From an uncultured archaeon (GTDB taxonomy: Archaea; Thermoproteota; Nitrososphaeria; Nitrososphaerales; Gagatemarchaeaceae), in contig CAWCYD010000003.1 in assembly GCA_963799775.1 (NCBI GenBank), positions 1,600,001 to 1,664,000 on the forward strand: a stretch of DNA of 64,000 nt, read 5' to 3'. Positions 2,363 through 32,840 of the stretch are shown here, one piece after another. Under the pieces are notes generated by a model, which ran no database searches, was not told the origin of the DNA, and saw only the letters and a list, made by a program, of their open reading frames with translations. The stretch's first letter is position 1; each line of letters starts with the position of its first letter. The translations under genes and the position numbers were made by a program.

Positions 2363-2364
2363 AG

Positions 2365-4482: not shown

Positions 4483-4538
4483 CCTTCGAAGACTATTATC
4501 GTCAGGGTTCGTCGACCCGCTTTCTCGAGAAGGGACTT

Positions 4539-5709
4539 TTGGATATCCTTCACAAACTATTTCCAAGCCTCTCAACGAGTTCGATTCAGTTGGGGCCTAG
4601 GAGAAGCGAGCTCGCCTTCATCATCACAGTCATGGTTGTTTTGGCATCATACGTGACGGCCTCCGAAGTACTCTCGACCGGCCCGGAATCATCTTCTGTG
4701 ATCACAACGATTAATGTCGGAGGCAGTCCAAGATATGCTGCCTTCGACCCCGCGAATGGCTACATATTCGTATGCAATGTTGGCTCCAACACGAGTCTGA
4801 AGGGAACCGTGGATGTGATCGACGGATCTTCGAATACCGTGGTGGCCAAGATCACGGTCGGAGTTTTCCCCAAATGGCTAGCTTTCGACTCGGCCAATGG
4901 AGATATCCTCGTCTCCAACTACGACTCTCATGCGATATCGGACGTAAGCGGAACATCGTGGGTCACCACTGCTACGCTCTCGCTCCCAAGCAAGGGGCCC
5001 CCGGTGCCTGAACCTGATGGAATCGCCTTCGACCCGACGAACGGGTATCTGTATGTCGTCGAGAACAACCTGGACTCTGTCATCGTGATTAACGGCGCGA
5101 ACGGCGCGGCGGTAGGTTCGCCGATACCAGTCGGCAAGGGCACCAGACGGAATAGCATTCAATCCATACACCGAGCAGATTGATGTCGCAAGTGACACAT
5201 CCCTCTCCGTGTTGAACCCGGCAAACGACTCGGTTGAGAGTTTCAAGACGCCGACCAGCTCGACCTCCCTCCCATTCACCGTCGCGGTCGACCCGTCGAC
5301 TGGGGACGTCTTTGTCGGCAATTTCGGCTCCAGTAGCGTCTACGTGTTCGGCCATTCTGGAGAGTTGGCGAACGTGACCCTAACCCAATCGCCCACCGCG
5401 ATCGCATTCGACTCGGCGACCGATGCAATGTTCGTGGCGGGCTCGAATGCCACTTTTGCGATAAATGCTCAGAACTTCGCCTTGATGGGCAAGCCGATTC
5501 CAGTCGGAAAGTCACTGCCGGATGTAAGCAATGGGGTCGCCTTCGACCTTGAGAATCACGAAATCTATGTGTCAAACGGGCTGGACGGGACCATATCAGT
5601 GATAGCCCCTGGGACGACGTCTCCTCCTCTGAGTTTTGCTCTTGTCGCCGTACCGATAATCTTCGTCGCCGTGCTGGCCGGCGTCGTGGTCTACCGACGC
5701 ATCGATTAG
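4539..5709 (+). CDS. YVTN/YncE-type beta-propeller surface protein (frameshift near 5140)
   Basis: repeated P.G.AFDP.NG.IYV / V.VIDG..N.V...I.VG motifs, N- and C-terminal TM. Confidence 0.8.
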
Positions 5710-5775
5710 AGAGCCAGGGAGCCCTGATTCGGCTAGCCTTCGACCAAGATCATCGTGAGAGTGCTCCTTCGAGAC

Positions 5776-5994
5776 TCAATCCATGAGTTCGAGGAATTGC
5801 TTCTTGGTCAGGCCCGCTTGCTCGACGATGGACAGAAGGGTCCCTCGCTTGATCTCATTCATCCGCGGTACCGCAACAAATCTTCCCTCTTGATTTTCGA
5901 CGATGATGTGGCTTCCCTTCTGTCTCACTGGCTTGAACCCAACCTTGGAGAGCGTTTTCAGCACCTCCCTCCAGTTGAGAACAGGAAGTGCCAT
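5776..5994 (-). CDS. hicA: HicA-family toxin
   Basis: LPVLNWREVLKTL..GF..RQKGSH..VP...EIKRGTL. Confidence 0.9.
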   Translation of the reverse strand: MALPVLNWREVLKTLSKVGFKPVRQKGSHIIVENQEGRFVAVPRMNEIKRGTLLSIVEQAGLTKKQFLELMD

Positions 5995-5997
5995 ACC

Positions 5998-6246
5998 TTA
6001 GACTACGACTTCGACTAGTTCCGCGTTCTTGGACACTTCCCTCTCCTTGAGGTGCTCAAGAACCAATTCGATTGCCTCCTTGATGTTGACGAGGGCTTCT
6101 TTCCTCGTCTCGCCCTGGCTGATGGCCTGGGGAAGTTCGAGGCATTGGACCGAGTAGCCGCCTTCCTCCTCCGGTTCCAATATGACGGTGAAGCGTCGAC
6201 CGCCGCGGACGGCTACTCGCTTGGACATGCGTGGAGTTCGGGCCAC
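5998..6246 (-). CDS. hicB: HicB-family antitoxin (short)
   Basis: EEEGGYSVQCLELPQAISQGETRKEALVNIKEAI. Confidence 0.9.
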   Translation of the reverse strand: MARTPRMSKRVAVRGGRRFTVILEPEEEGGYSVQCLELPQAISQGETRKEALVNIKEAIELVLEHLKEREVSKNAELVEVVV

Positions 6247-6286
6247 GCTTCACTATTAAGCCTAACGTGGTTCTATCGTGGATTGC

Positions 6287-6544
6287 TTACCCTTCGACGA
6301 CGATCATCGTCAGGGTGCTCCTGACGCGGTCGAGCCTGCGTATCTTCCAAGTGATGGTCTCCTTGACCTTCTCCATGGTGTCGGCCTCGACCCGAGCTAT
6401 GATATCATAAACGCCGTACACAACATAGACGTCCTTCACAAACTCTAATCCCCTTAGGGATTTCAGAAGCTCCTCCTCAGCGCCTAAATCAGCATTTATT
6501 AAAACGAACGCCATCGGCAATTGTCGAATCTCTGCCTCTCGCAT
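6287..6544 (-). CDS. stand-alone Lrp/AsnC ligand-binding (RAM) domain protein
   Basis: AFVLIN...VYGVYDIIARVEA...IRRLDRVRSTLTMIV. Confidence 0.85.
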   Translation of the reverse strand: MREAEIRQLPMAFVLINADLGAEEELLKSLRGLEFVKDVYVVYGVYDIIARVEADTMEKVKETITWKIRRLDRVRSTLTMIVVEG

Positions 6545-6679
6545 TACTATGGTGATGAGCGGTAATAACCATTGCTACTTGCGTTGCTAAAACGAAAGCC
6601 AAGGGCATTTTTGCGTTCGTCACCATTTAGCCGAACTCGGTATAAAGAGTTCATTTCCCACCTTACCGCGTAAGATCCG

Positions 6680-7357
6680 ATGAAGCGCGGAGAAGCAGCC
6701 TTTGCAACCATCCAGCTCATCATCTTCGCTGCCGTTCTGACCCTCGTGGCCCTGCCGGCCTTGAATGCTCCGTTCGTCCCGCGCTCTTTCGTCGCGACCA
6801 CGACAACCCCGTCAACCCAGGGTCTCGTCCTTACTCTCACCCTCAACTCGACCAGCCTGAAGAGCGGGCAGGGAATCAAGGCCACGGTCGAAGAGGTGAA
6901 TACGCTCCGCCAGACCAACAACGTGTCCGCCTCTGACAACTGGCCCTTGAAGAGCGCGACAGAGATACGGGGGACGACGCTGAACGATGGTGATTGCGGC
7001 CCAATCAACTTCCCCATGGGTTTGGAAATCGTCAGCGGATATTACACAAAAGACAACGCCTCGACGGCGCATCCACTCGAGCTCTACGGGTTTGGGTTGA
7101 CCAGTTGTCCTGCGGTCCTCAGCGAGATAGACCAATACAGCTTCCAGGCATCGAGCGAGAACGCGAGCATCATCGGAAGCTGCGACCCCAATCCGTGCTT
7201 TGCATACGGAATGACTGCCTCGGTGAGCGCCCGTGGCTCTTGGACGAGCTTCCTGGTCTTTGGTCCCAGCTTCGCGAACTTTGGCCCTGGCGTGTACACG
7301 GTTATTGCCGGAGACGAGTGGGGCGCCCTCGCCTTCACGTACTTTGACGTCGAATAG
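6680..7357 (+). CDS. secreted Cys-containing 'GDEWG' family protein
   Basis: signal/TM; GLVLTLTLNST..NNVSASDNWP..PGVYTVIAGDEWG shared with four paralogs. Confidence 0.75.
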   Translation: MKRGEAAFATIQLIIFAAVLTLVALPALNAPFVPRSFVATTTTPSTQGLVLTLTLNSTSLKSGQGIKATVEEVNTLRQTNNVSASDNWPLKSATEIRGTTLNDGDCGPINFPMGLEIVSGYYTKDNASTAHPLELYGFGLTSCPAVLSEIDQYSFQASSENASIIGSCDPNPCFAYGMTASVSARGSWTSFLVFGPSFANFGPGVYTVIAGDEWGALAFTYFDVE

Positions 7358-7406
7358 GTCGCCGCCTACGCAGTTCTTCTCATGGGGATTACCGCTGACC
7401 CGCCTA

Positions 7407-8567
7407 TTAGGGCAAGGGGCAGTTCTGTCCCGAGCCAACAAGAGCTGTGTCCACGTACCCGGGGCCAGCGGAGTCATGGAAGGCTATGAATTCCGAGGGC
7501 AGGGTCACCAACAGCTCGTTCATCAAACCATTGTAAGCCACGAACTGAGGTGTGCCCGGGAGCGAGTACATATCGAGCAGAGCCCCTGTCGCCCCGTCGT
7601 AGATGAACGTGTAGTTGAAGTCGAGAGAAATCGCTGCTATTTGGTCCGTGTTCTGAACGTAAGCCATGCTGTCGAACGGGCCGCACTCCTGCGGATTGAC
7701 CTTGAAGACCACCTGCCCATTGGTCGCGTTGATAGCGGCCAAAGTGTCGCCCGACACGTAGAAGAGGTGGTGTACCGTGTTGACGGCGACCCTGGGATAA
7801 CTCCCTCCTCCGAGCGTTACGTTGGCAACGAGGCTATTGCTCGTGCCATTAACAATGTACGCTACAGAGTCGCAGACAAAGCTGCCGACACACCCTGCCC
7901 CGATAATCATGTTCGTGCTCGGGTCGACGGCGATGGAGTCTGGCGAGTGTGGAAGGGGCACTCTCGCAACCACAGAACCCGTCTGGACGTTGATTCCCGT
8001 CAGCGTGCCATTGGCCGAACCGTAGAGGACGTGTGTGACCTGGTCGTACGCGAGGGTTCCATACCCGAGGGCCGGATGGAGCTCCCCCACAATCTGGTCA
8101 GTTGTGCCGTTGATCTCCACAACTCCGCCATCGACCGATACATAGACCATGTGGGTCTGCCAATCCGTTGCGATCCCGTTCTCGCTCCCCGCCGGGAGCT
8201 GAATGCTGGCCAGCACTTTGTGCGCGTAGCCGTTCACGACTGTGAGGTTCTTCGAGGACCACCCAGCGATGTAGATCTCGTCGGGGTTGGGATCCAGCCC
8301 GATTGTGCGGGGCTGCTGCCCTCCCAGCGTGATGTTGAAGGTCTCAAGGCTTGAAGCGGGAAACGGCGGACCTAGGGATACCGTGGCGGTAGCTGTGCTC
8401 AAAGTTGTCGTCTGTATAGACAAGACTGTAGAGACGCTCGTGAGAGTCGAAACTGAAGTCGCAGTCACGGTAGCGGTTTGGCGGGAGCCTGACCCGACGA
8501 AATAGCCAACTCCAAGGCCTGTTGCGACCAGAATCACGAGGACAATCGCAACAATATCATTTCTCAT
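7407..8567 (-). CDS. YVTN-like beta-propeller surface protein
   Basis: N-terminal TM, Thr-rich linker, P..IAVDP.TN / INGTT..IV repeats. Confidence 0.75.
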   Translation of the reverse strand: MRNDIVAIVLVILVATGLGVGYFVGSGSRQTATVTATSVSTLTSVSTVLSIQTTTLSTATATVSLGPPFPASSLETFNITLGGQQPRTIGLDPNPDEIYIAGWSSKNLTVVNGYAHKVLASIQLPAGSENGIATDWQTHMVYVSVDGGVVEINGTTDQIVGELHPALGYGTLAYDQVTHVLYGSANGTLTGINVQTGSVVARVPLPHSPDSIAVDPSTNMIIGAGCVGSFVCDSVAYIVNGTSNSLVANVTLGGGSYPRVAVNTVHHLFYVSGDTLAAINATNGQVVFKVNPQECGPFDSMAYVQNTDQIAAISLDFNYTFIYDGATGALLDMYSLPGTPQFVAYNGLMNELLVTLPSEFIAFHDSAGPGYVDTALVGSGQNCPLP

Positions 8568-8654
8568 TTTTACTGTGACATGCGGAGAAGGGGGCGCTCA
8601 CTATTGAACCTAACAACCAGCTCCTGCAGAGGAATGTTTCACCGCATATGGCGA

Positions 8655-8674
8655 GGTTCCATTGCGCCTCAGCG
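8655..8674. repeat. cassette-boundary repeat copy 1 (degenerate)
   Basis: GGTTCCATTGCGCCTCAGCG. Confidence 0.6.
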
Positions 8675-8780
8675 AGGACAATTCAAGCCGCGTCCCAGTA
8701 ATGTGGTCAGTGACGGATGCCTGTTTATCCACATTTGCAACATTTCCACGAAAGGTTTTCCGGCGACAGTGTTTTGGCAA

Positions 8781-10359
8781 TCAATGGTAAACATTGATGA
8801 TCTGGAGTTGGAACACATCTAGAAACGGCTGGCCGTTGACGCTCTCGTTCAGGACTATTGTGACACTCTCTTGCGGTGTGTTGGCAAATGTATTGATGCA
8901 CACTTGGAAGTAGTAGGGCTGGTCAGCCTGGATCACGAGCGAAGAATTGACAGGGAAGACCTGGAGCCAATTGGGGAGCGGGGACCTCCGTATCATTCTG
9001 GATTAAGCCGACCCCCGTGAAATTCACGGATAGGGTCGCATTTGAGATCATGCCAGGTGTGGGATCATAGACACCGGCTCCAATGGCGTAGTTGGTCTGA
9101 TCGGTCCCTATCTCTGCCGCCTGTGCGCCGGGAGAAAAGCCGACCGGCCCTGGTGAGCTCAATATGTGCGGGTTCCCGTCTGCATTGTTCAGCGCTATCA
9201 GGCCCTCTCCCATCAGGCCCTTGACGGAACCAGAAGCGTCGATGAAGAGAGAGTCGTTGAATGGGTTTGCGGGCGGAGGTGGGATATGGGTCTGCGGAGG
9301 AGGCGGTATTCCGACGCCGATCCCAAAGAGGAGCAGCGTAGAGGTCGCCCCCTGGGGGCCGACGTTCTCAAGGTGAGAAGGACTGAACTCCATCCAGGCG
9401 CCCTTCGGGACATCTGGAGAACTGAGATACACATCGGTCGTTGTGTTCGATGTCACAGTGACCTGGAACTTTTGTCCGCTAGCGAAGAAATCGTTCGGCC
9501 CGGCGTTCGACCCACATGAGCTCGCGTAGAGGTACACCCATGAGTAGGACGGCCCGCTGATCGTGACCTTGATTCCCTGCTGGATGGCGGTCGCATCACG
9601 CGCCATGAAGTAGACTGAGCCTATCGGCCTGACGGTGCGAAAGTCGAAGATGTACCCGCCCGGATGGGCGGAGAACTGTCCGCTGAAGCCTCCGCCTGGG
9701 AAACCACCTCCTGGGATCGAGACGCTCCTTGTCACGTTCTGGAGCGTCCCGGATAGAACCAGGGGTCGGAGGTCAGTAGAGTTGATCATCGCATCAGGCG
9801 TGAAGTAAACTGTGAGGTTCAGTTGCAATCCATTAAGGTCGGTACCTCGGAACGTGAATTGAATGGAAGCATTGTTCGAGAGTTCGAAGCCGAAGAGCTG
9901 CTCATGCAGGACTCCGCTCCATGAGGGTGGCTCGGGCTCGGAGACGTCCGTAGACATGTTGAATGTCTGAGGGACACCGACGGTGGACTCGGAAGAGGTG
10001 CACATTGGCGTGCTCCCGTTGGGGTAGGACGTCGCACAGTCTTCGTGGTACATCGTGGGAAGCCCCGAAGCGTTGAGAAGCGTGTCCTCGCTCGCAGCCA
10101 AGACCGAGCTAAAGGAAGAAGAGTTCTGAACATTGGCGCTGACGGTTGTCGAGTTCGCGCTAGAAGACGTAACGGTCGCAGGCGAGGACGTAGCGCTTTA
10201 TGGAGAGCCGGGGGTCTGCGTCGAAGCATTCGTCGTCGGCGAAAATCCTCTGGTGATCGATTGCGTGGGAGTGGAAGGGAGAGATAGAAACACAAGCAGC
10301 GAGGCTATCGCTACTGTGGCCAGAACGCCTCCCACAAGAGCTCCTTCGTTCCTCCTCAA
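8781..10359 (-). CDS. secreted protein, paralog of 23835-25415 (two apparent frameshifts)
   Basis: leader LRRNEGALVGG..; SEDTLLNASGLP..QADQPYYFQVC aligns with 23835-25415. Confidence 0.7.
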
Positions 10360-10713
10360 GGTCACCAATGGAGTTCCAAGGCATTGGTACTATTATCTCC
10401 TGTGAAGCTTCCCTCCCTCCTGAGCTAAAGGGCAGAGGTGGGTGAGGGCACCGAGATTTGCGTGGAAGAAGAGCCGCCGTCTGAGTGATAGCCAACCCTG
10501 CCGACTATCGTGAGCGCAACCAAGACGGTCACTGTCGCCGCCGCGCTCCTCATAGTCTTCAGATTTACGGAGACTCTCGTCAGCGATGGGGCGGTTCTGT
10601 GCACCACGCCGCCTTGGTGTGCTCTTTTGACAGGCGGACCGTGAGCTGAAGCCCTTCTCGACTTCACAAGAGTTTTTGACCATCCTCTGGCTATTCTTTT
10701 TCAGTCTGTCCCC

Positions 10714-11442
10714 ATGAAGAGGAAAGAAGCTAGCTTCATAGTGATACAAACAGGAATCCTAGTGGCTGTGCTTCTGCTCGTCTCCCTCCCCATACAGTCT
10801 CCATCGCCGCCGCCAAGTCCTCCAAATCCGATGGAAGAAACGTGCGCACAGACCCAGTCTTCAACCGCTCCACCTACCCTCCTAAGTCCTGTCAAAAACG
10901 AGACGACATTATCGAACGGCACGGTCGTCGACGAAACGTACTATCCCGTCCTGCTCCTTCGACCCGATACGACAGGAGCAATCTGCGTCAGGTATACCGA
11001 CCCGCTTTCGAAGGTGTCACAGAACCTTGTCGGAGCTACGTCGCTTTCCACCGGGATATTCGAGGTCAACAAGTCCTCGGGCGGAGGGGGAGAGACGATG
11101 GGGGTGGTTCCGCTCCCTCGAGGTGGCATCCTCAGCATCAGCGCGAGCCCTTCTCTGATCCAAGTCCAACCCGGCAGGAGCGAGGTCATCGCTTACACAT
11201 TGACATCGGGGAATTCGACCGGTGTGTATGAAGCAATGATGCCGCCGTGGGGCTACTGCTGGGGGCTACCGATATTTGTCGGGGGGAGCCCTTCCCAGCT
11301 CAATGCTACGGACTATTCTCAACTCGCTTTCATCACTAACCTGGCATGCTTTCCGCCTGGTGCAAGCAATCTCGTTGTGCTCTCAATCGCTTTCAGTAAC
11401 ATCGCGTTGGAATATGTGAGCCAGCCTGGCAGCAATGATTGA
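10714..11442 (+). CDS. secreted protein, MKRKEASF leader family
   Basis: TTLSNGTVVDE..PVLLLRP..ICVRY similar to 26742-27968. Confidence 0.7.
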   Translation: MKRKEASFIVIQTGILVAVLLLVSLPIQSPSPPPSPPNPMEETCAQTQSSTAPPTLLSPVKNETTLSNGTVVDETYYPVLLLRPDTTGAICVRYTDPLSKVSQNLVGATSLSTGIFEVNKSSGGGGETMGVVPLPRGGILSISASPSLIQVQPGRSEVIAYTLTSGNSTGVYEAMMPPWGYCWGLPIFVGGSPSQLNATDYSQLAFITNLACFPPGASNLVVLSIAFSNIALEYVSQPGSND

Positions 11443-11561
11443 TTCTTCGACTACCCATGGAAGTAGTGGCATCCTCGTAAGGTTCGAAATCATTCTCACG
11501 CCTTGAGCGAGACGTGTTTGATTCCCTGGGGTCAAGGTAGGCGAGGAGTTCACTGTGTTAG

Positions 11562-11573
11562 GGGTTCATTGCG
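11562..11573. repeat. cassette-boundary repeat copy 2 (partial)
   Basis: GGGTTCATTGCG. Confidence 0.55.
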
Positions 11574-11578
11574 GCAAA

Positions 11579-11589
11579 GTTTGGACAAA
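11579..11589 (+). promoter_or_regulatory. palindrome half-site upstream of TATA
   Basis: GTTTGGACAAA followed by TCTATTTAC, before TTG at 11635. Confidence 0.55.
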
Positions 11590-11634
11590 TCTATTTACCG
11601 CGCCGAGTGGAATGACCCTGCAGCGTCTTGGGCC

Positions 11635-12832
11635 TTGCCCAGTCGAAACACTTTCGGTTACGCCGCAATTCTCGCCGCTGCGATAGCGTGTGTTCTTGCC
11701 CTCGACCTTGTGGTCTTCCCCGTCTACCTGCCGCCGGTTGGCCCAAGCCAAACGTCGACGGGCGAGGCTAATGCCCAGCTCGGCTTACGCCTCACCCTCT
11801 CGCTGAACTCTACGAGGGTCGCATTCGGTGGACGCATCCAGATTGGCGTCGAGGAGCGGAACACCCTCTCGCGAGAGTGAACAACGTCACGGCCGCCGAT
11901 GACTGGCCGGCTGTGGGGCTTGACCTGGCCGCCGGGCCGAGGTCGATCTGCCCGGAGAGGGACGACATGGGGATAATCATCTACGAGGGTCCGCTAGACT
12001 TTGGAAACGTGTCCAGCGTGACCGGGGAGCAGATTGCGCCTGAAGGGGGTGCGTCATGCCCTTTTGTGCCGGGAATAATCTACTCGTACCAGTTTCAGGC
12101 CTCGAGCGACAACGCCACGGAGGCGTATGGCTGCAAGCCGGGCGCTTCTAACTCATCCGGGCCCGGCACGTCCTGTAGCTGCGTCCCTAGATCCTGTTCC
12201 CCTTTGGGCGTGAAGCCGGCGTTGACACAGAAGACCCTCGTCGTAAGAGGCTACTATGTCAATTTCACCACCCTCCACGCTTTTGCACCTGGTGAGTACT
12301 CGTGGTCGCGGGAGACGAATGGGGCGACGTCGCAATAGCTCACTTCACGGTCACGAGCCCGGGCTGCAAGACCTTGGACGATTCGCTGCCGTTTCCGGCA
12401 CTCCAGGAGAGAACCATCGGGGTCATCAACGAGCCAGGGGCCTGGGCATTCACTGCGAGTCTGGACAGCGCGGTGGGCTTTTTTGGAAGGAACGTGACAA
12501 TAAGCGCCAGCCTGGTGAACGTTGGGAACACATCTGAGAAGATCGAGCTCGTGGTTCCCATAATCGCACGTCTTCAGGTGCTCCGGAGTGATGGGAGCGC
12601 GGCTTGGACCTACGCCGCTCCATCACCCTTTCCATTACCCTTTTCGCCTAGTCTCTCCCTGGAGGATGTCACTCCCGACCAGCGGTTCAGCGATTCGGTT
12701 GGAATCCCCACCTCGCAGTTGCAACTCGGACAGAACTATACCGTGGTGGTTAGCCCGACATTCTTCGCCTCGCCGCCGTCAGCTCCCATCTCCTCCGGCT
12801 TGGGAATCACCTTCCCGCTGATGATCTGTTAA
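11635..12832 (+). CDS. secreted 'GDEWG' family protein with extra C-terminal domain (two apparent frameshifts)
   Basis: GLRLTLSLNST / NNVTAADDWP / VAGDEWG spread over three frames. Confidence 0.65.
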
Positions 12833-12851
12833 GGGTTCATTGCTCCTCCGC
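12833..12851. repeat. cassette-boundary repeat copy 3
   Basis: GGGTTCATTGCTCCTCCGC immediately after stop codon at 12832. Confidence 0.75.
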
Positions 12852-12902
12852 TTGCGCGTTTCATCCGCACGTTGGACTACAGTTATGGCTTGGGCATAAT
12901 CC

Positions 12903-13852
12903 TTAGGCGGACTTGGACACTGGCCCAACCACCCATACTACAAAGGAAGCTGAACAGTAGACCTCACCGTTCGAAGGCTCGACCATGAGTACGCCAAAGA
13001 TGTTCCCCACGATTGGATCACGAATCGTCGCGATCGGCGTGTTCGTGCTACCCGATATGACCACGATTGAAGACACAATTGTGGAGTTAGTCCGCTCGCT
13101 CGTCGATACGTAAAGATCTCCTGTGGCATTGTCGAACGCGAGGGCTGAGGGCGAGCCACCGAGTGCTATCGTCCCGTCGGCAGAATTGGTCGAACCTGAG
13201 ATGACAAAGATGCTGTCGTCATACATCGTGCTCAGGACATAGATGTTGCCGTTCGACGGATCCAGCACTGGTGTCTTGGGCGCGTACCCGACCGTAAGGT
13301 TGGCGATGACAGAGTTGGTTTGACCGGAAACCACAGAGACAAAACCGCGTGTCCAGCCGATACAACCATTGCAAGTAGGGAAGCCCGCACCATAGTCTGG
13401 CACGTAGATATCTCCGTTAAGAGGGTCGAATAATGGCGTAGCAGGATTTAGACCTACTTGCAAATCGGCAACTATCTCGTTTGTGGATCCTGATATCACT
13501 GATAGAGTGCCCCCGGGCGAAACACCGCGATTGGAACTGTTACCGAGATGAGGCACGTAGATGTCACCATTCGTCGGGTCGAGTGTAGGGGTGGCGTCTT
13601 CCTGGCCGAGCTGCATGGTTGAGACAAGTGCATTAGTCGTCCCAGATATTATTGAGATGGCATTGACGTCGGGCACATACAGGTCACCGTTGAGCGGATC
13701 AAACAACGGAGTCAAGGGCTCGATGCCAACTTCAATCCTGGCGCCGTCAACTCGTAGAGACCTGTCGCTGCGACCACGATGAGCAGAGTGCAAACGAACG
13801 CGAGAGATGCTGATTGTATGGCATGCCTGTGACGCTTCGCTAGCCAATCCAA
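12903..13852 (-). CDS. YVTN beta-propeller surface protein (frameshift near 13740)
   Basis: P.FDP.NGDIYVP repeats; signal peptide MDWLAKRHRHAIQSASLAFVCTLLIVV in another frame. Confidence 0.75.
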
Positions 13853-13928
13853 GACCCTCTACACGTTCGAGCGTAATGGTCTGCGGGTCTATTTCAAGTC
13901 GCCGAATCAATCCTTCGGGTCAGCGTCC

Positions 13929-13982
13929 GCTAGCCGGCTGAAAATGCGAGCGTTCGCCGAACAAAGGGTTCATTGCGCCTCC
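13929..13982. repeat. cassette-boundary repeat copy 4 with left arm
   Basis: GCTAG..GAAAATGCGAGCGTTCGCCGAACAAA-GGGTTCATTGCGCCTCC (core 13966-13982). Confidence 0.85.
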
Positions 13983-13996
13983 CGATTCTATTCGCC

Positions 13997-14665
13997 TTAG
14001 GGGGTGAAGGCGCCCAGGAACGCGAGACATCCGTAGTCTGTCCCATTGACGGTCTCCGTGGTGTATCCTATGCAACCATACACGCTCTGTCCCACTACCG
14101 GGGCTTTCACTCCGCCGAATTTCTGGGAGAAGATGGCCGTGAAGTTCGTGATGGTCCCAGTTGCTGTAATACTGGAGATGTAATACGAGGGAGAGCTCGT
14201 GCAGCTCGTGGCGGCACCACCACCGAAATTGTTCCCCGAACCGTAGGTCAGATCGACGCAATCCAGGCCCTTGTCGAGAGTAGTGCCGATGTCCGATGGC
14301 TGGTCTATGTTCGTGATTAGAAAGGTGCAGGTGTCGTTGCTGATACTGCACCCGGTTAGGTCAACACCCTTGGTCGGGCCGATGAACTCGTTGGAGAATT
14401 CGCCCGCGCCCGTTGGCTGCGAGGTCGTCGTTGTCACAATCGTGCTCGTCAGGTAGCTCGTCTGGAACAGGGTGGTTGTGGAGGTGGACGTCTCGGTGCG
14501 GACTGTGGAGGTGCCTGCAAAATATCCAACGCCAAGGCTCACCACTAGGAGGACTGTCACTGAAAGTGCAAGTAACTCGCGCTTCAACTCGAATCGAGAG
14601 AGGCCCGCCTTCCTATTGAAGGCTAGGGAGGAATCCTCTCGCGCGTGGGGGCAAATTGCCGCCAT
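13997..14665 (-). CDS. secreted Thr-rich, Cys-containing protein
   Basis: TM LLALSVTVLLVVSLGVGYF, Thr linker; true start probably near 14620. Confidence 0.7.
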   Translation of the reverse strand: MAAICPHAREDSSLAFNRKAGLSRFELKRELLALSVTVLLVVSLGVGYFAGTSTVRTETSTSTTTLFQTSYLTSTIVTTTTSQPTGAGEFSNEFIGPTKGVDLTGCSISNDTCTFLITNIDQPSDIGTTLDKGLDCVDLTYGSGNNFGGGAATSCTSSPSYYISSITATGTITNFTAIFSQKFGGVKAPVVGQSVYGCIGYTTETVNGTDYGCLAFLGAFTP

Positions 14666-14671
14666 GCATAT

Positions 14672-14693
14672 GGGTTCATTGCGCCTCCGTCGG
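14672..14693. repeat. cassette-boundary repeat copy 5
   Basis: GGGTTCATTGCGCCTCCGTCGG, 8 nt from stop at 14702. Confidence 0.85.
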
Positions 14694-14701
14694 GGATTGC
14701 G

Positions 14702-15781
14702 CTAGGGGCAGGTCGATGACAAGTAAGCAATCGTGACGTTCGTCCTCCCTGAAGGAAGATATAGGCTCGCGCACGTCGTCGAGAGCGGGGAAAGGCCCGC
14801 CGTCAACGTGTAGCTCTGGCCTGAGTATTTGACGAGGATTGAATATCCCCCGATGTTGTAGGTTCCCAATGAGTACCACTCTCGGCCTCCTGATGTAGTG
14901 AAGTATTGGGACTGTGGCTGACCGCATGGCTGTCCATTGACCGAGTCGGGGTGGGTGGTCGCATTCACCATCGCTCCCACCACAGGCGTCTGGTTCGAGT
15001 CCCAGATGACTCGGAGGTCGAAGCCGTCGGCCTGGCCTGTGATGACGCACTGCTCTGATGTCGAGGTCGTCTGCAGTGGAGACGTGGAGGAGGAGGATTC
15101 GGGAGTCGTACCGGGACCCAGTGTGAAGTTGGCTTCCAGCACTGAAGCCGAGCCCGTGCCGTCACCCGCGGCCAAGCTATAGTTCCCCGCTGTCACTGCG
15201 CCCATCCCCACCGTGACTACGCCTCCACTTTCGCCCGGCGCGGCAGTGTTCCAATCGGTTTCGCACGAGTCTCCAGTCGGAGACGGCGTCCCCGGCGCTC
15301 CCAGGGCGATGCATGGAGCCGTCTGGAGGACTAGGCTTCCAGTTGAGTTGGTAATCGTGAATGCCACCGTGTCGCTGTCGTAGAGTGATGCCGCCAAGCA
15401 GACGTCATCCCCGACCTTTGCGTTGGTAGAGACGTACAGCATCCCCTGCGAGTTCGAAGCCACCAGAGCGCAATCGCAGCCTGGCCATCCGGTCTCAGTG
15501 ACGGTGTAGGACGAGTTGCCTGTGTGGCCGGGGGAAGGAGCGCACTCTGACGAACTGACAGATTGAGACGAATTGGACCCAGTGAGGAACGTGCTTGTCG
15601 ACTGTGAGGTGGACGGAGAGGAGCTGATGGTGCTCGCCGGCCCGCCCGGATTAGTGTACGAGAAGTAGGAGTAAGTTGCCCCGGCGACCACGATCGCTGT
15701 AATCACCAGGAGGACCATGGCTGTCCGCTGGATTGCTACTCTTCGAGGCAACGCGCAATCGCTCTTTTCTTGAGGCGTCAT
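14702..15781 (-). CDS. secreted two-domain Ser/Thr-rich protein
   Basis: N-terminal TM, paired Cys; likely start TTG at 15751. Confidence 0.7.
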   Translation of the reverse strand: MTPQEKSDCALPRRVAIQRTAMVLLVITAIVVAGATYSYFSYTNPGGPASTISSSPSTSQSTSTFLTGSNSSQSVSSSECAPSPGHTGNSSYTVTETGWPGCDCALVASNSQGMLYVSTNAKVGDDVCLAASLYDSDTVAFTITNSTGSLVLQTAPCIALGAPGTPSPTGDSCETDWNTAAPGESGGVVTVGMGAVTAGNYSLAAGDGTGSASVLEANFTLGPGTTPESSSSTSPLQTTSTSEQCVITGQADGFDLRVIWDSNQTPVVGAMVNATTHPDSVNGQPCGQPQSQYFTTSGGREWYSLGTYNIGGYSILVKYSGQSYTLTAGLSPLSTTCASLYLPSGRTNVTIAYLSSTCP

Positions 15782-15789
15782 TCGTGATA

Positions 15790-15875
15790 TACTTTTGTCC
15801 GAACGTTACAGCTCACGCTAGCTTATCGAAAATGCGGGCATTCGCCGAGCATAGGGTTCATCGCGCCTCCGCCGG
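15790..15875. repeat. promoter half-site + left arm + repeat copy 6
   Basis: TTTGTCCGAAC 15794-15804; core GGGTTCATCGCGCCTCCGCCGG 15854-15875; block aligns with 17398-17483. Confidence 0.85.
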
Positions 15876-15879
15876 AGAT

Positions 15880-16341
15880 TCACGACGGTCTCGCAGCGAT
15901 GCCGTCTGCACAAATCTGTGAGTGAGGCGCAGGGTCGCTCGAACCCGAATGCACGCCCGACTCAGGGCTTCCCCGTCTTTGGTAGAGGAAGATGGCTCCC
16001 AGAGCAAGAGCGAAGCCAACAAGCCAGACGAGGATAATCCCAGGTCCCACAGGGACGTGGAGGAGCCCGAAGAGCTCGGGCGAGCAACGCCCACCGATCC
16101 CGGTAACGAGACTCGTGCTCGTGTAGTTGGCCGGGTAGGTACCCGAAACAGTCCCTCTGCCGACGGTGCTCGACCAAACGCAGACGTACCCGAACGAGGT
16201 CGTGACGGTGGTCGTCCCCGTGATGGTCCCGGCCACGGGAAAGAAATCGACGACCCCTCTCGGGGCGAGGCTCATCACGAAGAGCACGTAGAGCACGGCG
16301 AAGACGGCCACGACGATGCTTAGGCTGGGAAGGAGCCTCAA
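15880..16341 (-). CDS. small two-TM membrane protein
   Basis: N- and C-terminal hydrophobic helices around a Thr-rich loop. Confidence 0.65.
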   Translation of the reverse strand: MRLLPSLSIVVAVFAVLYVLFVMSLAPRGVVDFFPVAGTITGTTTVTTSFGYVCVWSSTVGRGTVSGTYPANYTSTSLVTGIGGRCSPELFGLLHVPVGPGIILVWLVGFALALGAIFLYQRRGSPESGVHSGSSDPAPHSQICADGIAARPS

Positions 16342-16422
16342 GTGTCAGCTTCTATGTTCTAGAGAACCTCCAGGGCTTTATCCCATTCGTCGCAGTCACA
16401 GTGGTAATGGTGGGCTTTCCTC

Positions 16423-17361
16423 CTATGAGAGGACGGTAATCTCGAGCAGGACATTCATGTCGCACGTGAAGAAGAACTGCAGAGTCACACTTCCGTTGAA
16501 GAGGGAGACTGGTCCCTGACCGAAGTCGGGAGGCCAGCTCTGGCCATTCCAAGCTCCAAGGTTGGTGTAATTTGCAACCTGTGTCGTTTGCCCGTTTGAG
16601 ACGTGCAGAAAGACCTGAGGCCAAAGGTAGACGACCTGAGGAGTGTTGGAGTAGGCGACCGCCCTGACCGCGTACCCTCCCACGCTTACCGACGTGCCAT
16701 TCCATTGCCAAGAGTTGAACTGGGCAGTCACGTTGAGGACTGAGACAGCCTTGGTTGTGGAACTCGAGTTGGAAGGCGCTTGGCCCGAATAGCAGGTTGA
16801 GGTTTGGACCGTGCTGCTTGGGGGAACAATCTGAACCTGCACCGTATAGGAGAACTGCGTTCCGTTCACGAGGGTTCCACTGATCGTAAGAGGATATTCG
16901 AGGCTGCTGTCAATTGAATAGCCGATCAAAGTACGCGTTTCCTGGATGCTTTGGCCAAGCAGGAGGGGATTCGACGAGTTCACGTTGAACACGAAGGATT
17001 ACGGGACGGACGGTCCTCCGGGAAGCCTTGGTAGGGTCGCGTTCAGAGAGGTGATTGGAGTCTCGCCCGTATTCTTCAAGGATATGCTGATTACCGGCCC
17101 TCCCGGATTGGGGGGCGGGATCGGACCCGTTACCGAAACGACCTGGACGGGGCCATTGGATGTAGTCACCGTCTGGGTATTGTTCTCAGAGACATTCGTG
17201 ACTGTTCCAGAAGTGGTCGTCTCACAGCAGAGAATTGTGGTCTGAGAAGTCGCGGAAGGTGATGACGTCACGGCAAGGTAACCCGCTGCAACAGCGGCCA
17301 CGATTATGACGGCCACGAAAGCGACTGCGGCCCCCGCAACTGCTTTCCGGTTCCGAGCCAT
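16423..17361 (-). CDS. secreted protein interrupted by in-frame TAA at 16999-17001
   Basis: MARNRKAVAG leader; the two ORF halves are in the same frame. Confidence 0.6.
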
Positions 17362-17397
17362 GCAAAGTCGATGATGAACACGCCAACGCGCCATTAG

Positions 17398-17483
17398 TAC
17401 TTTTGTCCGAACGCTCCAGCTCTAGCTGGATTCGAGAAAATGCGGGCTGGACCATGCATAAGGGTTCAGTGCGCCTTCGCCGG
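17398..17483. repeat. promoter half-site + left arm + repeat copy 7
   Basis: TTTGTCCGAAC 17402-17412; core GGGTTCAGTGCGCCTTCGCCGG 17462-17483. Confidence 0.85.
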
Positions 17484-17561
17484 TGAAAGTTCCAGAAGGC
17501 GTATCTATCCCGGGAGCAGGCAAAGCGGTGATGCTGATGGTAGGATCTCGACTTTCATTGG

Positions 17562-18071
17562 ATGGCTAGGGTCTCAACTTTGGAACTTACCCTTCAGGAT
17601 TACTTGGTCTGGCTGAAGAGACTCTCCGTATTGGGGATGTTCGGTGGTTACATCATCGGAAGACTGCCTCCCCCGCCCCTCACGTGCAACAATCCTCAGG
17701 TAATCAACGGACAACCTTTCTGCATGTATAGTGGGCCCGTCATCCCGCCCATAACCGCTGTCGTAGGAATCCCGATGCTCTTGCTCTCGGCTTTCGGGCT
17801 TGCCTCCTTCTTCCTGATCAGGCAGATCGCCCCCGGCGAAACGGGAGGTGCGATGAGCAGTATCTGGCTCGTGCTTGCCGTGGCTATCATGCTGCCGCTT
17901 ACGGTATTCACTTACGAGGAACAGGCGACACTCGCGTGGTTCGGGACACCGCTCACACCGCTGACTGTGGGAATCGGAGTACCAATCATTGCTTGCTCGG
18001 TCTTCAGGTTCGTCAGGCCCTACAAGGTCAAGTGGACACCCGAAGCTAACGAGAGTGAACTATTCGCCTAG
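17562..18071 (+). CDS. hypothetical multi-TM membrane protein
   Basis: about four hydrophobic segments, Cys-bounded loop. Confidence 0.6.
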   Translation: MARVSTLELTLQDYLVWLKRLSVLGMFGGYIIGRLPPPPLTCNNPQVINGQPFCMYSGPVIPPITAVVGIPMLLLSAFGLASFFLIRQIAPGETGGAMSSIWLVLAVAIMLPLTVFTYEEQATLAWFGTPLTPLTVGIGVPIIACSVFRFVRPYKVKWTPEANESELFA

Positions 18072-18113
18072 GTCTCTCTCGTCGCTTGCTTGTGGCAGCC
18101 TTCGTCGTGAAAT

Positions 18114-18135
18114 GGGTTCATTGCGCCTCCGCCGG
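18114..18135. repeat. cassette-boundary repeat copy 8 (consensus)
   Basis: GGGTTCATTGCGCCTCCGCCGG. Confidence 0.9.
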
Positions 18136-18171
18136 GCATTTCATTCACTCGTTGGGCAAACGGTTCTCCCA

Positions 18172-18402
18172 TCAATCGAGCAAGTCTAGGAATTGCTCAA
18201 CGGTAAATCCAGCCTCACTGATTATCGCTCTTAGGGTTCCTCGGGGAATCTCATCATAGTTCGGAATGGCAATCCTGCGATGGGGCGGCTCTTCGCGCCT
18301 GAGAACTATGTGGCTTCCCTTTTGATGGTCGAACCTGTAGCCAATCTTCGATAATGCTTTGACGACTTCCTTTGCCGAAAGAATCGGAAGCTTCCTAGGC
18401 AT
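18172..18402 (-). CDS. hicA: HicA-family toxin
   Basis: LPILSAKEVVKAL..GY..HQKGSH..IP...EIPRGTL. Confidence 0.9.
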   Translation of the reverse strand: MPRKLPILSAKEVVKALSKIGYRFDHQKGSHIVLRREEPPHRRIAIPNYDEIPRGTLRAIISEAGFTVEQFLDLLD

Positions 18403-18634
18403 TCATTTCAACTGTCACGATTTCCTCGTTTATCGGAGGCGGAACAGGCTCGTTATGCTTCTGCAAGCTTTCGATGTAAGCTTGGATTGCCTCTTTGATG
18501 TTCTTCAGTGCCTCGGCCCTCGTCGACCCGGAAGAGATGCAGCCTGGCAGCTCGGGGACTCTCGCAGTGAACTTGCCATCCTCGTCCTGTTCGATCAGGG
18601 TCCGATACCGCAGTTTGAGTTTCCGCGAAGCCAT
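18395..18634 (-). CDS. hicB: HicB-family antitoxin (short)
   Basis: DEDGKFTARVPELPGCISSGSTRAEALKNIKEAI. Confidence 0.9.
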   Translation of the reverse strand: MASRKLKLRYRTLIEQDEDGKFTARVPELPGCISSGSTRAEALKNIKEAIQAYIESLQKHNEPVPPPINEEIVTVEMNA

Positions 18635-18726
18635 GCGGAGGAACGGAGCTCTGTCGCTCGATATAACTATCTCGGCGGTCGGTGTGGAGTGACCAAGACG
18701 AGGGAAGCTTAGCCGCCGTGCTAAGA

Positions 18727-18748
18727 AGGTTCATTGCGCCTCCGCCGG
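18727..18748. repeat. cassette-boundary repeat copy 9
   Basis: AGGTTCATTGCGCCTCCGCCGG. Confidence 0.88.
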
Positions 18749-18786
18749 GGCGCTGATTGCTTGACCCTCACGAGTTCGAGCCTTTC

Positions 18787-19752
18787 TCATCCGCCGACCA
18801 AGCCGACGCCCGGCGGTCGCTGCACAACCGGTCCGTCGGTCCTTTCAAGATCGTCGAAGAGGTTGAGCAGCATCCTTCCCATGGGTGTCACCTCGTAGAG
18901 CCTGACCGTCCCGTAGGCCGACTGCTCCCTGACGAAGCCGTACTTGTTGAGCGTCTGCATGTGCCTGTCCACGGTCTTCCAGTCGACCCCCAGTTCCTCT
19001 GCCAATTGGAGCCTGTCCTTGGGGGTGCTCAGCGTGTTGAGGAGCCTGATCCTGGTGGCCCCGCCCTTCATCTTCATGAAGAGCTCGAAGACGTCCGACC
19101 CGAACCCCATCTCGCTGTATCGCGCCCTCACCCGGCCCCTCCAGACCCAGGCCCCGCCCACGAGGACCCACGTCACGGGGGCCACGAAGAGCGAGGCGGA
19201 TTGCACCTCCCTCAAGAGCGATGCGCCTTCGGTGGTTGAGATGGCGGCGAGAGCAGCCGAGTTCTGGGAACTGGTGGTCGCGCCGCCGAAAGTGTAGCCG
19301 GCCCCGCCGGTAGAGGTCGAGACGGCTCCTGCTGCGGAGGAAGCTGTGACCGTCGTTACCGGCCCCGCCGGGGCGTTTACAACAGCGGTGGTCGTGGATG
19401 TGGAGGTAATCGTTGACGTCGCAGTTGTCGTGATACTCGAGGTCACGACGGTCGTGGTTGACTCGGTAGCTGGGCTGGACACTGTGCTCGATAGAGCAGA
19501 GGAACCCCCGGCCGACTGCCCGGCGGCGGTCGAGGTCGCTGTCGAGACCGAAGAGCTTGCTTTGGTCGATGAAGCCTGCGCCGCGGCTGAGGATGAGATG
19601 CTTGAGGACGATGTGGGCGCTTCGGAATTCGAGGCCGCGGAATTCAGTGCCGGGACGGCGGATTGAGAAGTGACAAGACCCCACCCTGCCAGTAATGAGG
19701 TCCCTGCCGCAACGAATAGCAAAGCGGCGAAGGCGGCCGCAAACTTGTTCAA
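18787..19752 (-). CDS. membrane-tethered ArsR-like wHTH transcriptional regulator
   Basis: signal/TM, ~150 aa Ser/Thr linker, second TM, then KGGATRIRLL..QLAEELGVDWKTVDRHMQTL..YEVTPMG. Confidence 0.8.
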   Translation of the reverse strand: MNKFAAAFAALLFVAAGTSLLAGWGLVTSQSAVPALNSAASNSEAPTSSSSISSSAAAQASSTKASSSVSTATSTAAGQSAGGSSALSSTVSSPATESTTTVVTSSITTTATSTITSTSTTTAVVNAPAGPVTTVTASSAAGAVSTSTGGAGYTFGGATTSSQNSAALAAISTTEGASLLREVQSASLFVAPVTWVLVGGAWVWRGRVRARYSEMGFGSDVFELFMKMKGGATRIRLLNTLSTPKDRLQLAEELGVDWKTVDRHMQTLNKYGFVREQSAYGTVRLYEVTPMGRMLLNLFDDLERTDGPVVQRPPGVGLVGG

Positions 19753-19796
19753 TCTAACAGCAGATAGGAAAAAATCGCCTGGTCACCATAAATAGT

Positions 19797-19818
19797 TTTG
19801 TCCGAACGTTCGGACAAA
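19797..19818. promoter_or_regulatory. perfect 22-bp palindrome between divergent promoters
   Basis: TTTGTCCGAAC-GTTCGGACAAA. Confidence 0.8.
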
Positions 19819-19851
19819 CCCTCATCTCGACACAGGTCGCTATTGCCGGTC

Positions 19852-21172
19852 ATGCGTTCGAGAAGGGCACTTGCCGTCATCGTATTGCTGCTTGTCGTCG
19901 TCGGGGGAGGAGTAGTAGTGGGTCTGACCGGGGCGCCGAATGCCTTGCGGGCAGGGTCGATGTTGAACGCACCCTCCACACAGAACATCGAGGCGGGCCC
20001 GGCCCTCGCGAGCATCGGGACGAGCTTCGGCTTTGGGGCGGTGGCGAGCTCGACTTCGGCCGCAGCCAACGTCCCTATCTCTGCCGGAGCAGTCACCACT
20101 TTGACTACGACCGAGATCGCGTCTTCGACCGTATCCGCGCCCGCGAGCGGCAGCACCATTGCTATTCAGGGCAACTCGCAGGCGTTTTCGACAGGAGCGC
20201 CTCTTACGGCCGCCTCGGCTGAAGCCAACTCGAGCCGCGACATCGAGTTCTTCACCAACGTCACGCTCCAGGCCCCTTCGGCATCGGCTGCCTTCACAAA
20301 GGCGACTGCGATCGCCTACTCGCTCGGGGGATACGTCTCTGACTCCACCGAGAGCAACACCACCGCCCTCGTGGTCATCCGCGTTCCGGCGGCGAGCGAC
20401 CAGGAAGCCCTGGCGCAGGTCGAGGGTCTCGGCACGCGGGTCACCTTGAGCTCCTCGAGCAACGACGTGACCGTGCAGTACACCGACCTGAACGCGACCC
20501 TCCAGTCTCTGCAGGCCGAGCAGAGCTCCCTGCTTACGATCCTCGGCCAGTCGACCAACATCAACTCGACCCTGAACGTAGAGTCGAGGGTCCAGTCCGT
20601 CGACCAGCAGATCAATGCCGTGGAGAGCGAGATCCTGCAGACGAGGACGCTCGTCTCCTACGCCACGATTTCTACGTTCATCGAGGAGAAGGCGCCCGCA
20701 CAGCCGCTCACGATAAAGGTCACGGCGACACCGCGAACCGGTGACGCCCCGCTCAGCGTGACGTTCAACGCTGTGACGAAGGGCGGGGTCCAGCCGTACA
20801 TCGTGAACTACAACTTTGGCGACGGGCACCTCCTACGAGGGGCAGGCGCTCATACACACGTTCCAGCAGGCCGGGCGCTACAACGTGACGGTCACCGCAA
20901 CGGACGCCTCGGCCAACGTCACGGAGGCATGGACGGTGGTCAACGTCTCCCCCGCTCCGGCAGCCTCGGGCTTCGGCGGCTTCCCTAACTTCATAGGAGG
21001 GCTCTTCCTGCAGGTGGTCGAGGGGATCGCGGAGGTCGCGGTGGTCGTGCTCCCGGTCGCGGGCGCCCTCCTGTTGGTGCTCTTCCCCCTCCGGCACAGG
21101 TTGGGGATGTCCTCAGGACGGCCCAGTCACGATGAGGAAAGGAAGGCCGGGGAACCCGACAAGACTTCGTGA
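19852..21172 (+). CDS. DUF4349-family membrane protein with PKD domain (frameshift near 20830)
   Basis: GGYVS..IRVPA..DVTVQYTDLNA coiled coil, SYATI; APLSVTF..NFGDG..HTF..GRYNVTVTATD; C-terminal TM. Confidence 0.75.
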
Positions 21173-32749: not shown

Positions 32750-32840
32750 GAGTTCGAGTCGGAATGATCAACTGCCTCTTGGAAAACCATTGCCGAACCG
32801 AATTTGTTCGCGCTTGACTAGAAGCGCCCAGCCATTGTTG

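Follow-up and report, generated by a model that had tools for sequence, protein, structure and literature searches.

What is the short repeat that recurs between the genes at positions 13929 to 18748 of a 64,000-nucleotide stretch of an uncultured archaeon of the Gagatemarchaeaceae (hereafter, the window; assembly GCA_963799775.1, contig CAWCYD010000003.1), and what kind of system placed it there? The original prediction took it for the 3′ end of a tRNA gene followed by its trailer, i.e., for an att-like remnant of integration. According to our analysis, the repeat was, with near certainty, copied from the 3′ side of the 23S rRNA gene and is composed of the end of the 23S gene (0 to ~70 nt), an invariant core of 21–25 nt (CCGGCGGAGGCGCAATGAACC) and a trailer. 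As for the system, the window probably holds a secondary array of integron-like, site-specifically recombined cassettes, the attachment site of which derives from that 23S flank.

The repeat claimed to lie at the gene boundaries is real. When searched as a pattern (≤3 mismatches), the core, which reads GGTTCATTGCGCCTCCGCCGG on the plus strand of the window, is found six times (at 12834, 14673, 15855, 17463, 18115 and 18728), always on the same strand and never in 100 dinucleotide-preserving shuffles; a profile derived from copies of the arrays also recovers a degenerate one, the seventh, at 13936-13982. Six of the seven copies are inside 13929-18748, and only the one at 12827-12881 is outside. 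Because the intervening genes are mostly on the minus strand, the element is best read as the reverse complement of GGTTCATTGCGCCTCCGCCGG, namely CCGGCGGAGGCGCAATGAACC. The seven copies, from head to tail in that reading, are as follows:

18707..18752, minus strand: head boundary repeat (core 18728-18748, 0 mismatches); the stop codon of a winged-helix gene lies ~40 nt upstream
18097..18159, minus strand: boundary repeat (core 18115-18135, 0 mismatches), preceded by the 23S-terminus-like sequence CAACGAGTGAATGAAATGC; 88% identity over 60 nt to the native 23S end
17428..17489, minus strand: boundary repeat (core 17463-17483, 2 mismatches), followed by the native-type trailer GCATTTTC..CTAG, then by CGTTCGGACAAA
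15810..15881, minus strand: boundary repeat with trailer (core 15855-15875, 1 mismatch); 88% identity to the native site (core plus trailer behind the 23S gene) over 69 nt
14651..14697, minus strand: boundary repeat (core 14673-14693, 1 mismatch), beginning 5 nt past the stop codon of the upstream gene
13936..13982, minus strand: degenerate boundary repeat (core ~13967-13982) with a native-type trailer
12827..12881, minus strand: tail boundary repeat (core 12834-12854, 3 mismatches), preceded by a 28-nt 23S-terminus-like stretch

The shared trailer GCATTTTC..CTAG reported earlier does follow the copies at 13966, 15855 and 17463.

The origin of the repeat was found on contig C3, at the sole large-subunit rRNA gene of the genome (C3:1863478-1867442, Rfam), 7 nt after which the first core begins (C3:1867449-1867469). 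What precedes the core in the longer copies is the terminal part of the 23S gene (..GGCGACCAGTTCAGCCCGTCCACTACCTATAGCTCAACGTGYGRATGAAATGCC), contiguous over up to ~70 nt in several of them, and an alignment of ten copies shows homology reaching back to about −58 to −66. The length of this part is variable: in an ungapped comparison of the 66 non-native copies, which slightly undercounts owing to one-base shifts, six have at least 50 nt of 23S-like sequence, five have 20–49 nt, six have 8–19 nt and 49 have fewer than 8 nt. Across 133 copies, conservation is limited to about −2..+23 and drops to background within a few nucleotides on each side. On the trailer side, TATGCAYGGY (≤1 mismatch) is kept behind 20 of the 67 cores, versus 0.03% of random 22-mers.

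In light of this match, the view that the copies are scars of integration into a tRNA gene, with the acceptor strands GCCTCCG/CGGAGGC and G73, is almost certainly wrong. The letters can indeed be parsed as a T-stem strand, an acceptor strand and a discriminator, and true 3′-end fragments of a tRNA-Val adjoin two cores elsewhere in the genome. However, among the tRNAs of the genome (18 by ARAGORN, 27 by Rfam RF00005), none of the 27 Rfam matches starts with GCCTCCG or ends with CGGAGGC, and an exhaustive search for T-loops with CGGAGGC behind them returned two places, neither of them among these 27. Moreover, neither a T loop nor the 5′ strand of a T-stem precedes the longer copies, where the sequence is the 23S terminus (..CTATAGCTCAACGTGYGRATGAAATGCC), running without interruption into core and trailer. 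ARAGORN detects no tRNA in the window, in agreement with the caveat that no intact parent gene was seen there. As to the AAT reported shortly 5′ of the core (minus-strand reading) and one nucleotide out of tRNA register, it is present in the copies at 14673, 15855 and 18115, but it belongs to GAATGAAATG, at the 23S terminus. Since the genome is 82% complete, absence alone cannot exclude a missing tRNA; the question is settled because the repeat positively matches the 23S gene, rather than by the lack of a fitting tRNA. What stands of the att-like remnant is a duplicated 3′ end of a stable RNA, with its trailer, at the joints of inserted DNA, whereas the gene concerned is that of the 23S rRNA; that every one of the copies records a single integration event is a fair but unproven proposition.

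The tRNA-Val(GAC) fragments are a case of their own. The 3′ end of this tRNA is present as two 15-nt copies (one exact, one with a single mismatch) at C3:1355544-1355744 (L007:4544-4744), interleaved with two cores in a ~110-nt tandem unit, while the intact gene lies ~7.3 kb away (C3:1362956-1363051); the interval contains two more cores and no Pfam-recognisable integrase. Here, a classical tRNA-type att remnant sits beside the 23S-type repeat.

In its native context, the core, together with the first 10–13 nt of the trailer, pairs with GCCGTGCATAGGGTTCGCGCAAGCATCCGCCGGGG, on the 5′ side of the 23S gene (co-fold at −124.8 kcal/mol), and thereby forms the 3′ strand of the processing stem of the pre-23S rRNA. 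In three species, the first trailer likewise pairs with the resident 5′ flank, in duplexes of −57 to −59 kcal/mol. The stem can be drawn with a GCGC helix between an AAG and an AAU bulge, which we take to resemble the bulge-helix-bulge motif cut by the archaeal splicing endonuclease in pre-rRNA, the minimum-energy fold of the region being slightly different from that drawing. Other families of the order also have the centre of the motif (GAGGCGCAATGA..TATGCATGG) after their 23S gene, in keeping with a processing role of the native copy.

Such a role raises the possibility that the copies are kept as RNA-level signals, either as processing half-helices (bulge-helix-bulge-like) or as transcription signals, in arrays that grew by ordinary duplication. 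The position of the core in the processing stem and the conservation of its centre speak for this explanation, as does a promoter-like motif (CGTTCGGACAAA) with an A/T-rich box in some trailers. Yet we consider it highly improbable. Twelve DNA folds (seven window copies on the sense strand, three on the other strand and the native site on both strands) are no better than those of shuffled sequences (z from −1.87 to +1.31), a search of window positions 11000-21000 against Rfam (E ≤ 1) returned no match, and the promoter-like motif follows only six of the 67 cores. Furthermore, signals of this kind leave unexplained the core-to-core units, the differing first cassettes and the variable platform loci described below. 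The motif itself, followed by a TATA-like A/T box, is found ~30–40 nt ahead of several start codons, at 22 places in the genome, including 15794-15805, 17402-17413 and 19797-19818 in the window, the last one consisting of two copies that form a perfect palindrome between divergent genes; as only six of the 22 places follow a core, we regard it as a promoter or a regulator site in its own right. The core also holds GGAGG-N5-ATG (e.g., window 14673-14693, minus strand), which opens tiny open reading frames (ORFs) beginning MNP.. and differing in length; these were rejected as genes and ascribed to a coincidence of the rRNA flank, the native copy being untranslated and the lengths variable.

Three further observations concern the rRNA locus. 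A group I intron interrupts the 23S gene (L001:10517-10772; C3:1865517-1865772), the 23S gene of G007 seemingly bears a further insertion near its 3′ end, and, just upstream of the rRNA operon, the gene for the beta subunit of pyruvate:ferredoxin oxidoreductase contains a LAGLIDADG intein (L001:2454-4526; C3:1857454-1859526).

How many copies are there, and where? In this genome (G000), 67 copies were counted at ≤4 mismatches and 71 by profile, and the main array, which starts at the 23S gene (C3:1867449-1921273, 53.8 kb), comprises 44 of them on the same strand (48 by profile), with a median spacing of 931 bp (42 of 43 spacings ≤2.5 kb) and a G+C content of 0.547, versus 0.588 for the genome. 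Two other species of the genus have arrays of the same design, with 51 copies over 83 kb in G014 and 38 copies over 62 kb in G007, all on the strand of the rRNA operon; the median unit size in the three species is 927–1005 bp. In both, the first core adjoins the 23S end (the Rfam match of the 23S gene stops early in G007, but the true end, read from the sequence, is next to the first core), while in G017, a third species of the genus, a core overlaps the 23S end and further copies follow downstream. The array thus begins at the 23S end in four of the six genomes examined (G000, G014, G007 and G017; the remaining two are G001 and G021). Repeat-free stretches of 10–19 kb occur within the arrays.

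Regarding taxonomic distribution, a 21-mer of the core (≤2 mismatches) was found in 19 of the 22 other genomes of the genus, in the single genome of a second genus and not in that of a third, nor in any of 16 genomes of other families. A 19-mer (≤2 mismatches) matched 66 of the 80 other genomes of the family, at least one genome matching in nine of the ten sampled genera, compared to one match for a reversed control pattern. No 22-mer of the 23S end or of the trailer recurs downstream of the 23S gene (4–20 kb) in 17 genomes of other families. The same test on three genomes of the family itself was invalid for two of them (G041 and G058), in which the Rfam match ended off the true 3′ end of the 23S gene; the rRNA contig of G058 carries 14 cores. 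An 18-nt word of the core also matched four viral contigs, none of which agreed beyond the word, so that these hits were dismissed as chance.

The arrays consist of discrete core-to-core units. Homology between the rRNA operons of G000, G007 and G014 ends 2–10 nt past the first core, and the first cassettes differ, as at a hot spot of insertion. Cassettes are also common to G007 and G014 (32828-33707 and 45195-46075, respectively, at 94.8% identity, with cores at 32830/33687 and 45197/46055; 59864-60572 and 78138-78846, at 94.0%), and in each case the match begins at one core and runs through the following one. Of three duplicates within G014, one runs from core to core, another ends at a core and the last starts 38 nt before a core.

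Small units might also be the debris of larger ones, i.e., tandem insertions of once complete elements (plasmids or proviruses) that had their own integrase targeting the 3′ end of the 23S gene and later decayed. Archaeal elements are known to integrate in tandem at a single att site (PMC8371274; PMC6563490), and the arrays contain the larger repeat-free stretches mentioned above, with one distal stretch of 10 kb (L004:5081-9186; C3:1914081-1918186) encoding an AIPR abortive-infection protein and a Schlafen-group-3-like helicase. We nevertheless judge this scenario quite unlikely, given that the units are uniformly small in three species, that neither an integrase nor a fragment of one was found in the 54-kb array and that the same small units recur intact, from core to core, at other positions and in other genomes.

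The content of the main array is heterogeneous. Out of 71 ORFs of at least 70 aa, 24 have a Pfam family, including VapB/PIN and MazE/PIN pairs, Fic, thermopsin, CorA, Lrp/AsnC and ArsR regulators, GNAT, methyltransferases, an aldo-keto reductase, one DDE transposase and a full paralogue of the TATA-binding protein (L003:9782-10414; C3:1900782-1901414). Another cassette encodes a protein of the FtsZ/tubulin family in which a winged helix-turn-helix is inserted between the two halves (L003:18434-19891; C3:1909434-1910891). The cassettes of the window, together with the gene that flanks them, are:

18787..19752, minus strand: flanking non-cassette gene, 321 aa, C-terminal winged helix (HVO_A0261_N)
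18175..18634, minus strand: HicA cassette, with the toxin gene at 18175-18402, overlapped on its upstream side by an ORF of 79 aa (18395-18634)
17562..18071, plus strand: cassette with a single antisense ORF, a membrane protein of 169 aa
15880..17394, minus strand: cassette with a broken frame of 323 codons (16426-17394) and a membrane protein of 153 aa (15880-16341)
14702..15781, minus strand: cassette with a protein of 359 aa, N-terminal membrane anchor and Ser/Thr-rich linker, no family match
13997..14665, minus strand: cassette with a protein of 222 aa, N-terminal membrane anchor and Thr-rich linker, no family match
12903..13910, minus strand: cassette with a repeat protein of 335 aa, weak NCBIfam match to a beta-propeller (YVTN-type), below the curated cut-offs

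The 79-aa ORF, which has no NCBIfam match and fell outside the Pfam scan, is presumably the antitoxin of HicA. The 323-codon frame (minus strand) encodes a membrane-anchored, Ser/Thr-rich surface protein with one in-frame TAA, which marks it either as a cassette gene in decay or as a candidate for read-through. In total, five proteins of the window cassettes are anchored to the membrane at their N-terminus, three of them with a Ser/Thr-rich linker after the anchor. The 3′ part of the antisense cassette (17562..18071), along with its adjoining core, resembles C3:373003-373226 (225 bp at 91.6% identity), the similarity stopping at the core.

The locus of the window array is shared with G018, in which the flanks are 76–84% identical and the array-bearing segment is inverted, while the cassettes are unrelated except for repeat and trailer. 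When window positions 1076-18752 are compared to the corresponding locus (L021), one inversion breakpoint falls at the head copy, beside the winged-helix gene. To the left of the array, positions 8900-12820 have no match in the five relatives searched.

Which enzyme could move such units? G000 has five Phage_integrase matches, all away from the 23S array, and two of them (L005 and L008) are paralogous integrases each followed by a J-domain gene and then by a core. The same trio was recovered in G020 (L024, identical to L027), in G011 (L025), in a public metagenome-assembled genome (MAG; L029) and in two metagenome contigs (L060 and L084), which amounts to seven distinct platform loci. In these, the first core comes 0.06–1.4 kb after the J-domain gene and is followed by one to three differing cassettes. 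Where flanks are comparable, the left flank is conserved up to the core (L025, L027 and L029) and the right flank from the last core onward (L005, L008, L027 and L029), with different cassettes in between, which locates the exchange within the core. For instance, a STAND-NTPase cassette is the second one in L027 but has been fused to the platform by an ordinary deletion in L008, and the sole cassette of L029, although shorter, starts with the same sequence.

The full-length integrase (444 aa in the L024 form) is best matched by the archaeal XerA model, at 48.6 bits (cut-off 220), versus 23.5 bits (cut-off 265) for the integron integrase (TIGR02249), and its nearest solved structure is Pyrococcus abyssi XerA (4A8E, E = 5e-8). 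Our alignment features a C-terminal CPRC..CP[RK]C ribbon as well as residues that, by our own assignment, would fit the positions of the catalytic Arg, Lys, His-x-x-Arg and Tyr. Metagenome searches returned 56 integrase loci, of which 36 were scored (35 longer matches and L103) and 20 short partial matches were left out. Among relatives not paired with a J-domain gene and having at least 1.5 kb downstream, one of 28 (L083) has a core. The wider family looks like ordinary tRNA-targeting integrases because one relative (L089) adjoins direct repeats of a tRNA T-arm. From this co-location, the Xer-like, zinc-ribbon tyrosine recombinase and its J-domain partner emerge as the candidate enzyme of the cassette system.

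The mechanism that we propose runs as follows. The core would be the crossover site at which small cassettes of one or two genes are inserted, excised and shuffled, with the native core behind the 23S gene as the primary site, where 40–50 cassettes would have accumulated, and secondary arrays elsewhere. The recombinase would exchange strands within the 21–25 bp core, joining a circular cassette to any resident core or, for excision, pairing two resident cores with each other. At its 3′ end, a cassette would carry the 23S-like part of the site, left of the crossover, and at its 5′ end the trailer, right of it, so that the trailer of the first cassette might restore the processing stem of the rRNA, as tRNA-targeting elements restore the tRNA. 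Cassettes would rely on their own promoters. The identity of the repeat, the layout of the arrays and the core-to-core nature of the cassettes are shown by the data, whereas we infer that this recombinase is the catalyst, that intermediates are circular and what the trailer does.

Several observations weigh against this mechanism. Regarding the enzyme, there is no Phage_integrase match in C3:1855-1929 kb and no integrase in or beside any of the 23S-adjacent arrays examined. Both integrase copies of G000 lack the N-terminal 50–95 residues of the 444-aa forms, and a locus with a weak J-domain match (L103) has no core within 5 kb. The integrase family, even including paralogues, was detected in only ten of the 22 other genomes of the genus (E ≤ 1e-10; most of these genomes are incomplete), and in G007, a single contig that is 95% complete and bears an array of 38 copies, the sole tyrosine recombinase is a paralogue of 54% identity without a core nearby. 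A bona fide XerA above the curated cut-off was not found in the five genomes searched either. Regarding the site, the dyad symmetry usual for tyrosine-recombinase sites was not seen in the core, by inspection and by a repeat search at the copies. As for the dynamics, neither an excised circle nor a cassette-precise polymorphism was seen; Logan contigs of one soil study mapping to window 11500-20500 are short pieces, in which repeat joints have 21–39 letters on the shorter side, as repeats produce, and speak neither for nor against excision. In none of three arrays is there a significant increase in core mismatches away from the rRNA gene (Spearman 0.09–0.23, p > 0.15), which leaves the entry of new cassettes at the head unsupported. 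Finally, 26 of the 71 array ORFs are antisense (45 are sense), and the variable length of the 23S-like and trailer homology also suits homologous recombination.

This last point leads to another explanation, in which circles sharing 25–130 bp of homology with the 23S flank would integrate, excise and shuffle through the general recombination machinery of the host alone, and the integrase/J-domain locus would be an uninvolved mobile element with a copy of the repeat by chance. It would account for 23S-side homology of 0 to ~70 nt and trailer homology of up to ~50 nt, for the several array-bearing genomes in which the candidate integrase was not found and for a core devoid of dyad symmetry. Still, we hold it to be rather unlikely: conservation falls to background just outside the 21–25 nt core over the 133 copies, 49 of the 66 non-native copies have so little 23S-like sequence (<8 nt) that homology is scarce, junctions are located at the core both in platform loci and in comparisons between species, and the integrase/J-domain pair adjoins a core in seven loci.

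Site-specific recombination at a 23S-derived site therefore remains our preferred reading, and we also formulated it in a more ambitious version, about which we are nearly undecided and lean slightly to the negative. In that version, the soil Thaumarchaeota of Group I.1c, to which a related public record is assigned, would have independently evolved a counterpart of the integron, using the 3′ half of the 23S stem as its site and a zinc-ribbon, Xer-like recombinase with a J-domain co-factor, while the rRNA operon would be the main docking point and every cassette would rebuild the processing helix.

How does this system compare with known ones? Like integrons, among them the sedentary chromosomal and the archaeal ones, it has long same-strand arrays of ~1 kb cassettes, with many orphan genes and toxin-antitoxin pairs, and a Xer-related tyrosine recombinase beside the primary site in the seven platform loci; arrays without an adjacent integrase recall the clusters of attC sites lacking integron-integrases (CALINs), and the content varies between species. 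We set it apart from integrons because it lacks both of their defining features: the sites do not fold as attC, and the recombinase is not IntI. The integron site is a folded attC hairpin, whereas the present one is a 21–25 bp stretch copied from an rRNA flank, and none of the 12 DNA folds contains an element-spanning, attC-type hairpin. GCTCAAC, which fits the inverse core motif of attC, was rejected, as it is the 23S terminus and is not followed by a partner GTTRRRY. Besides falling far short of the IntI cut-off, the recombinase differs by its zinc ribbon, its J-domain partner and its orientation, co-directional with the cassettes. Finally, the main array is here anchored to the 23S gene.

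Xer-dependent modules, such as the IMEX elements (integrative mobile elements exploiting Xer) and the pdif modules of Acinetobacter plasmids, are small, often encode toxin-antitoxin pairs and are bounded by short repeated sites on which a Xer recombinase acts in trans. The resemblance lies in small gene modules bounded by repeated short sites, but the core described here has no pair of inverted, dif-like arms: a dif-like site (two inverted 11-bp arms with a 6–8 bp spacer) was not seen at the copies, by inspection and in a listing of inverted repeats. The HVR2 of Pelagibacter is a hypervariable region between rRNA genes, and is not known to be a repeat-bounded cassette array. Both systems thus feature a strain-variable island beside a 23S gene, yet in our case the cassettes are bounded by repeats and the 5S gene is 300 kb away from the 23S gene.

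With integrative elements targeting tRNA or tmRNA genes, the system shares direct repeats equal to the last part of a gene for a stable RNA (its 3′ end), which itself remains whole at one boundary, along with incoming DNA that supplies the displaced 3′ part and tandem pile-up; moreover, a relative of the candidate integrase (L089) is found beside such tRNA repeats. The differences are the target, here the 23S flank, and the units, which number 40–50, measure ~1 kb and lack an integrase of their own. In the literature searched, as far as the texts were available, we found no description of 23S-anchored cassette arrays. Archaeal integrons were described by Ghaly et al. 2022 (PMC9668308), whose main text, in the portion available, does not mention rRNA; from its supplementary table, we note a cluster of five attC sites on one contig of a MAG of the UBA183 family, which may or may not coincide with the present repeat. 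A survey of thaumarchaeal mobile elements lists tRNA genes, intergenic regions and 3′ ends of protein genes as targets, without mentioning rRNA in its accessible part (PMC6563490), and the same holds for the absence of rRNA in the accessible part of a review of archaeal tyrosine recombinases (PMC8371274). Likewise, the accessible part of the Gagatemarchaeaceae genomics paper contains none of the terms integrase, mobile genetic, rRNA operon and toxin-antitoxin.

The finding opens onto an integron-like cassette system, family-wide and anchored at the 23S rRNA gene, in abundant, uncultured archaea of acid soils. If this mechanism is correct, it would add a second way of capturing genes in the manner of integrons, with a different site logic and another recombinase lineage, as the site would be a short linear copy from an essential RNA-processing helix instead of a folded attC. 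A hypervariable pool of 50–80 kb (surface proteins, toxin-antitoxin pairs, defence genes and regulators) would be tied to a locus that the cell cannot lose. This raises the questions of how rRNA processing is protected from dozens of decoy half-helices, of what a J-domain protein does beside a recombinase and of whether cassettes travel between species. On the latter point, the 23S fragments borne by cassettes have UUCG-type loop variants, unlike the GCAA loop of the resident gene, and other species have other loops, which hints at exchange between lineages. From a practical perspective, contigs adjacent to the rRNA genes of these organisms are expected to assemble poorly, and the array explains why.

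A last observation concerns the winged-helix gene that flanks the window array. It is kept beside the syntenic locus in two relatives, and paralogues of it lie within ~1 kb of cores in G007 and G014.

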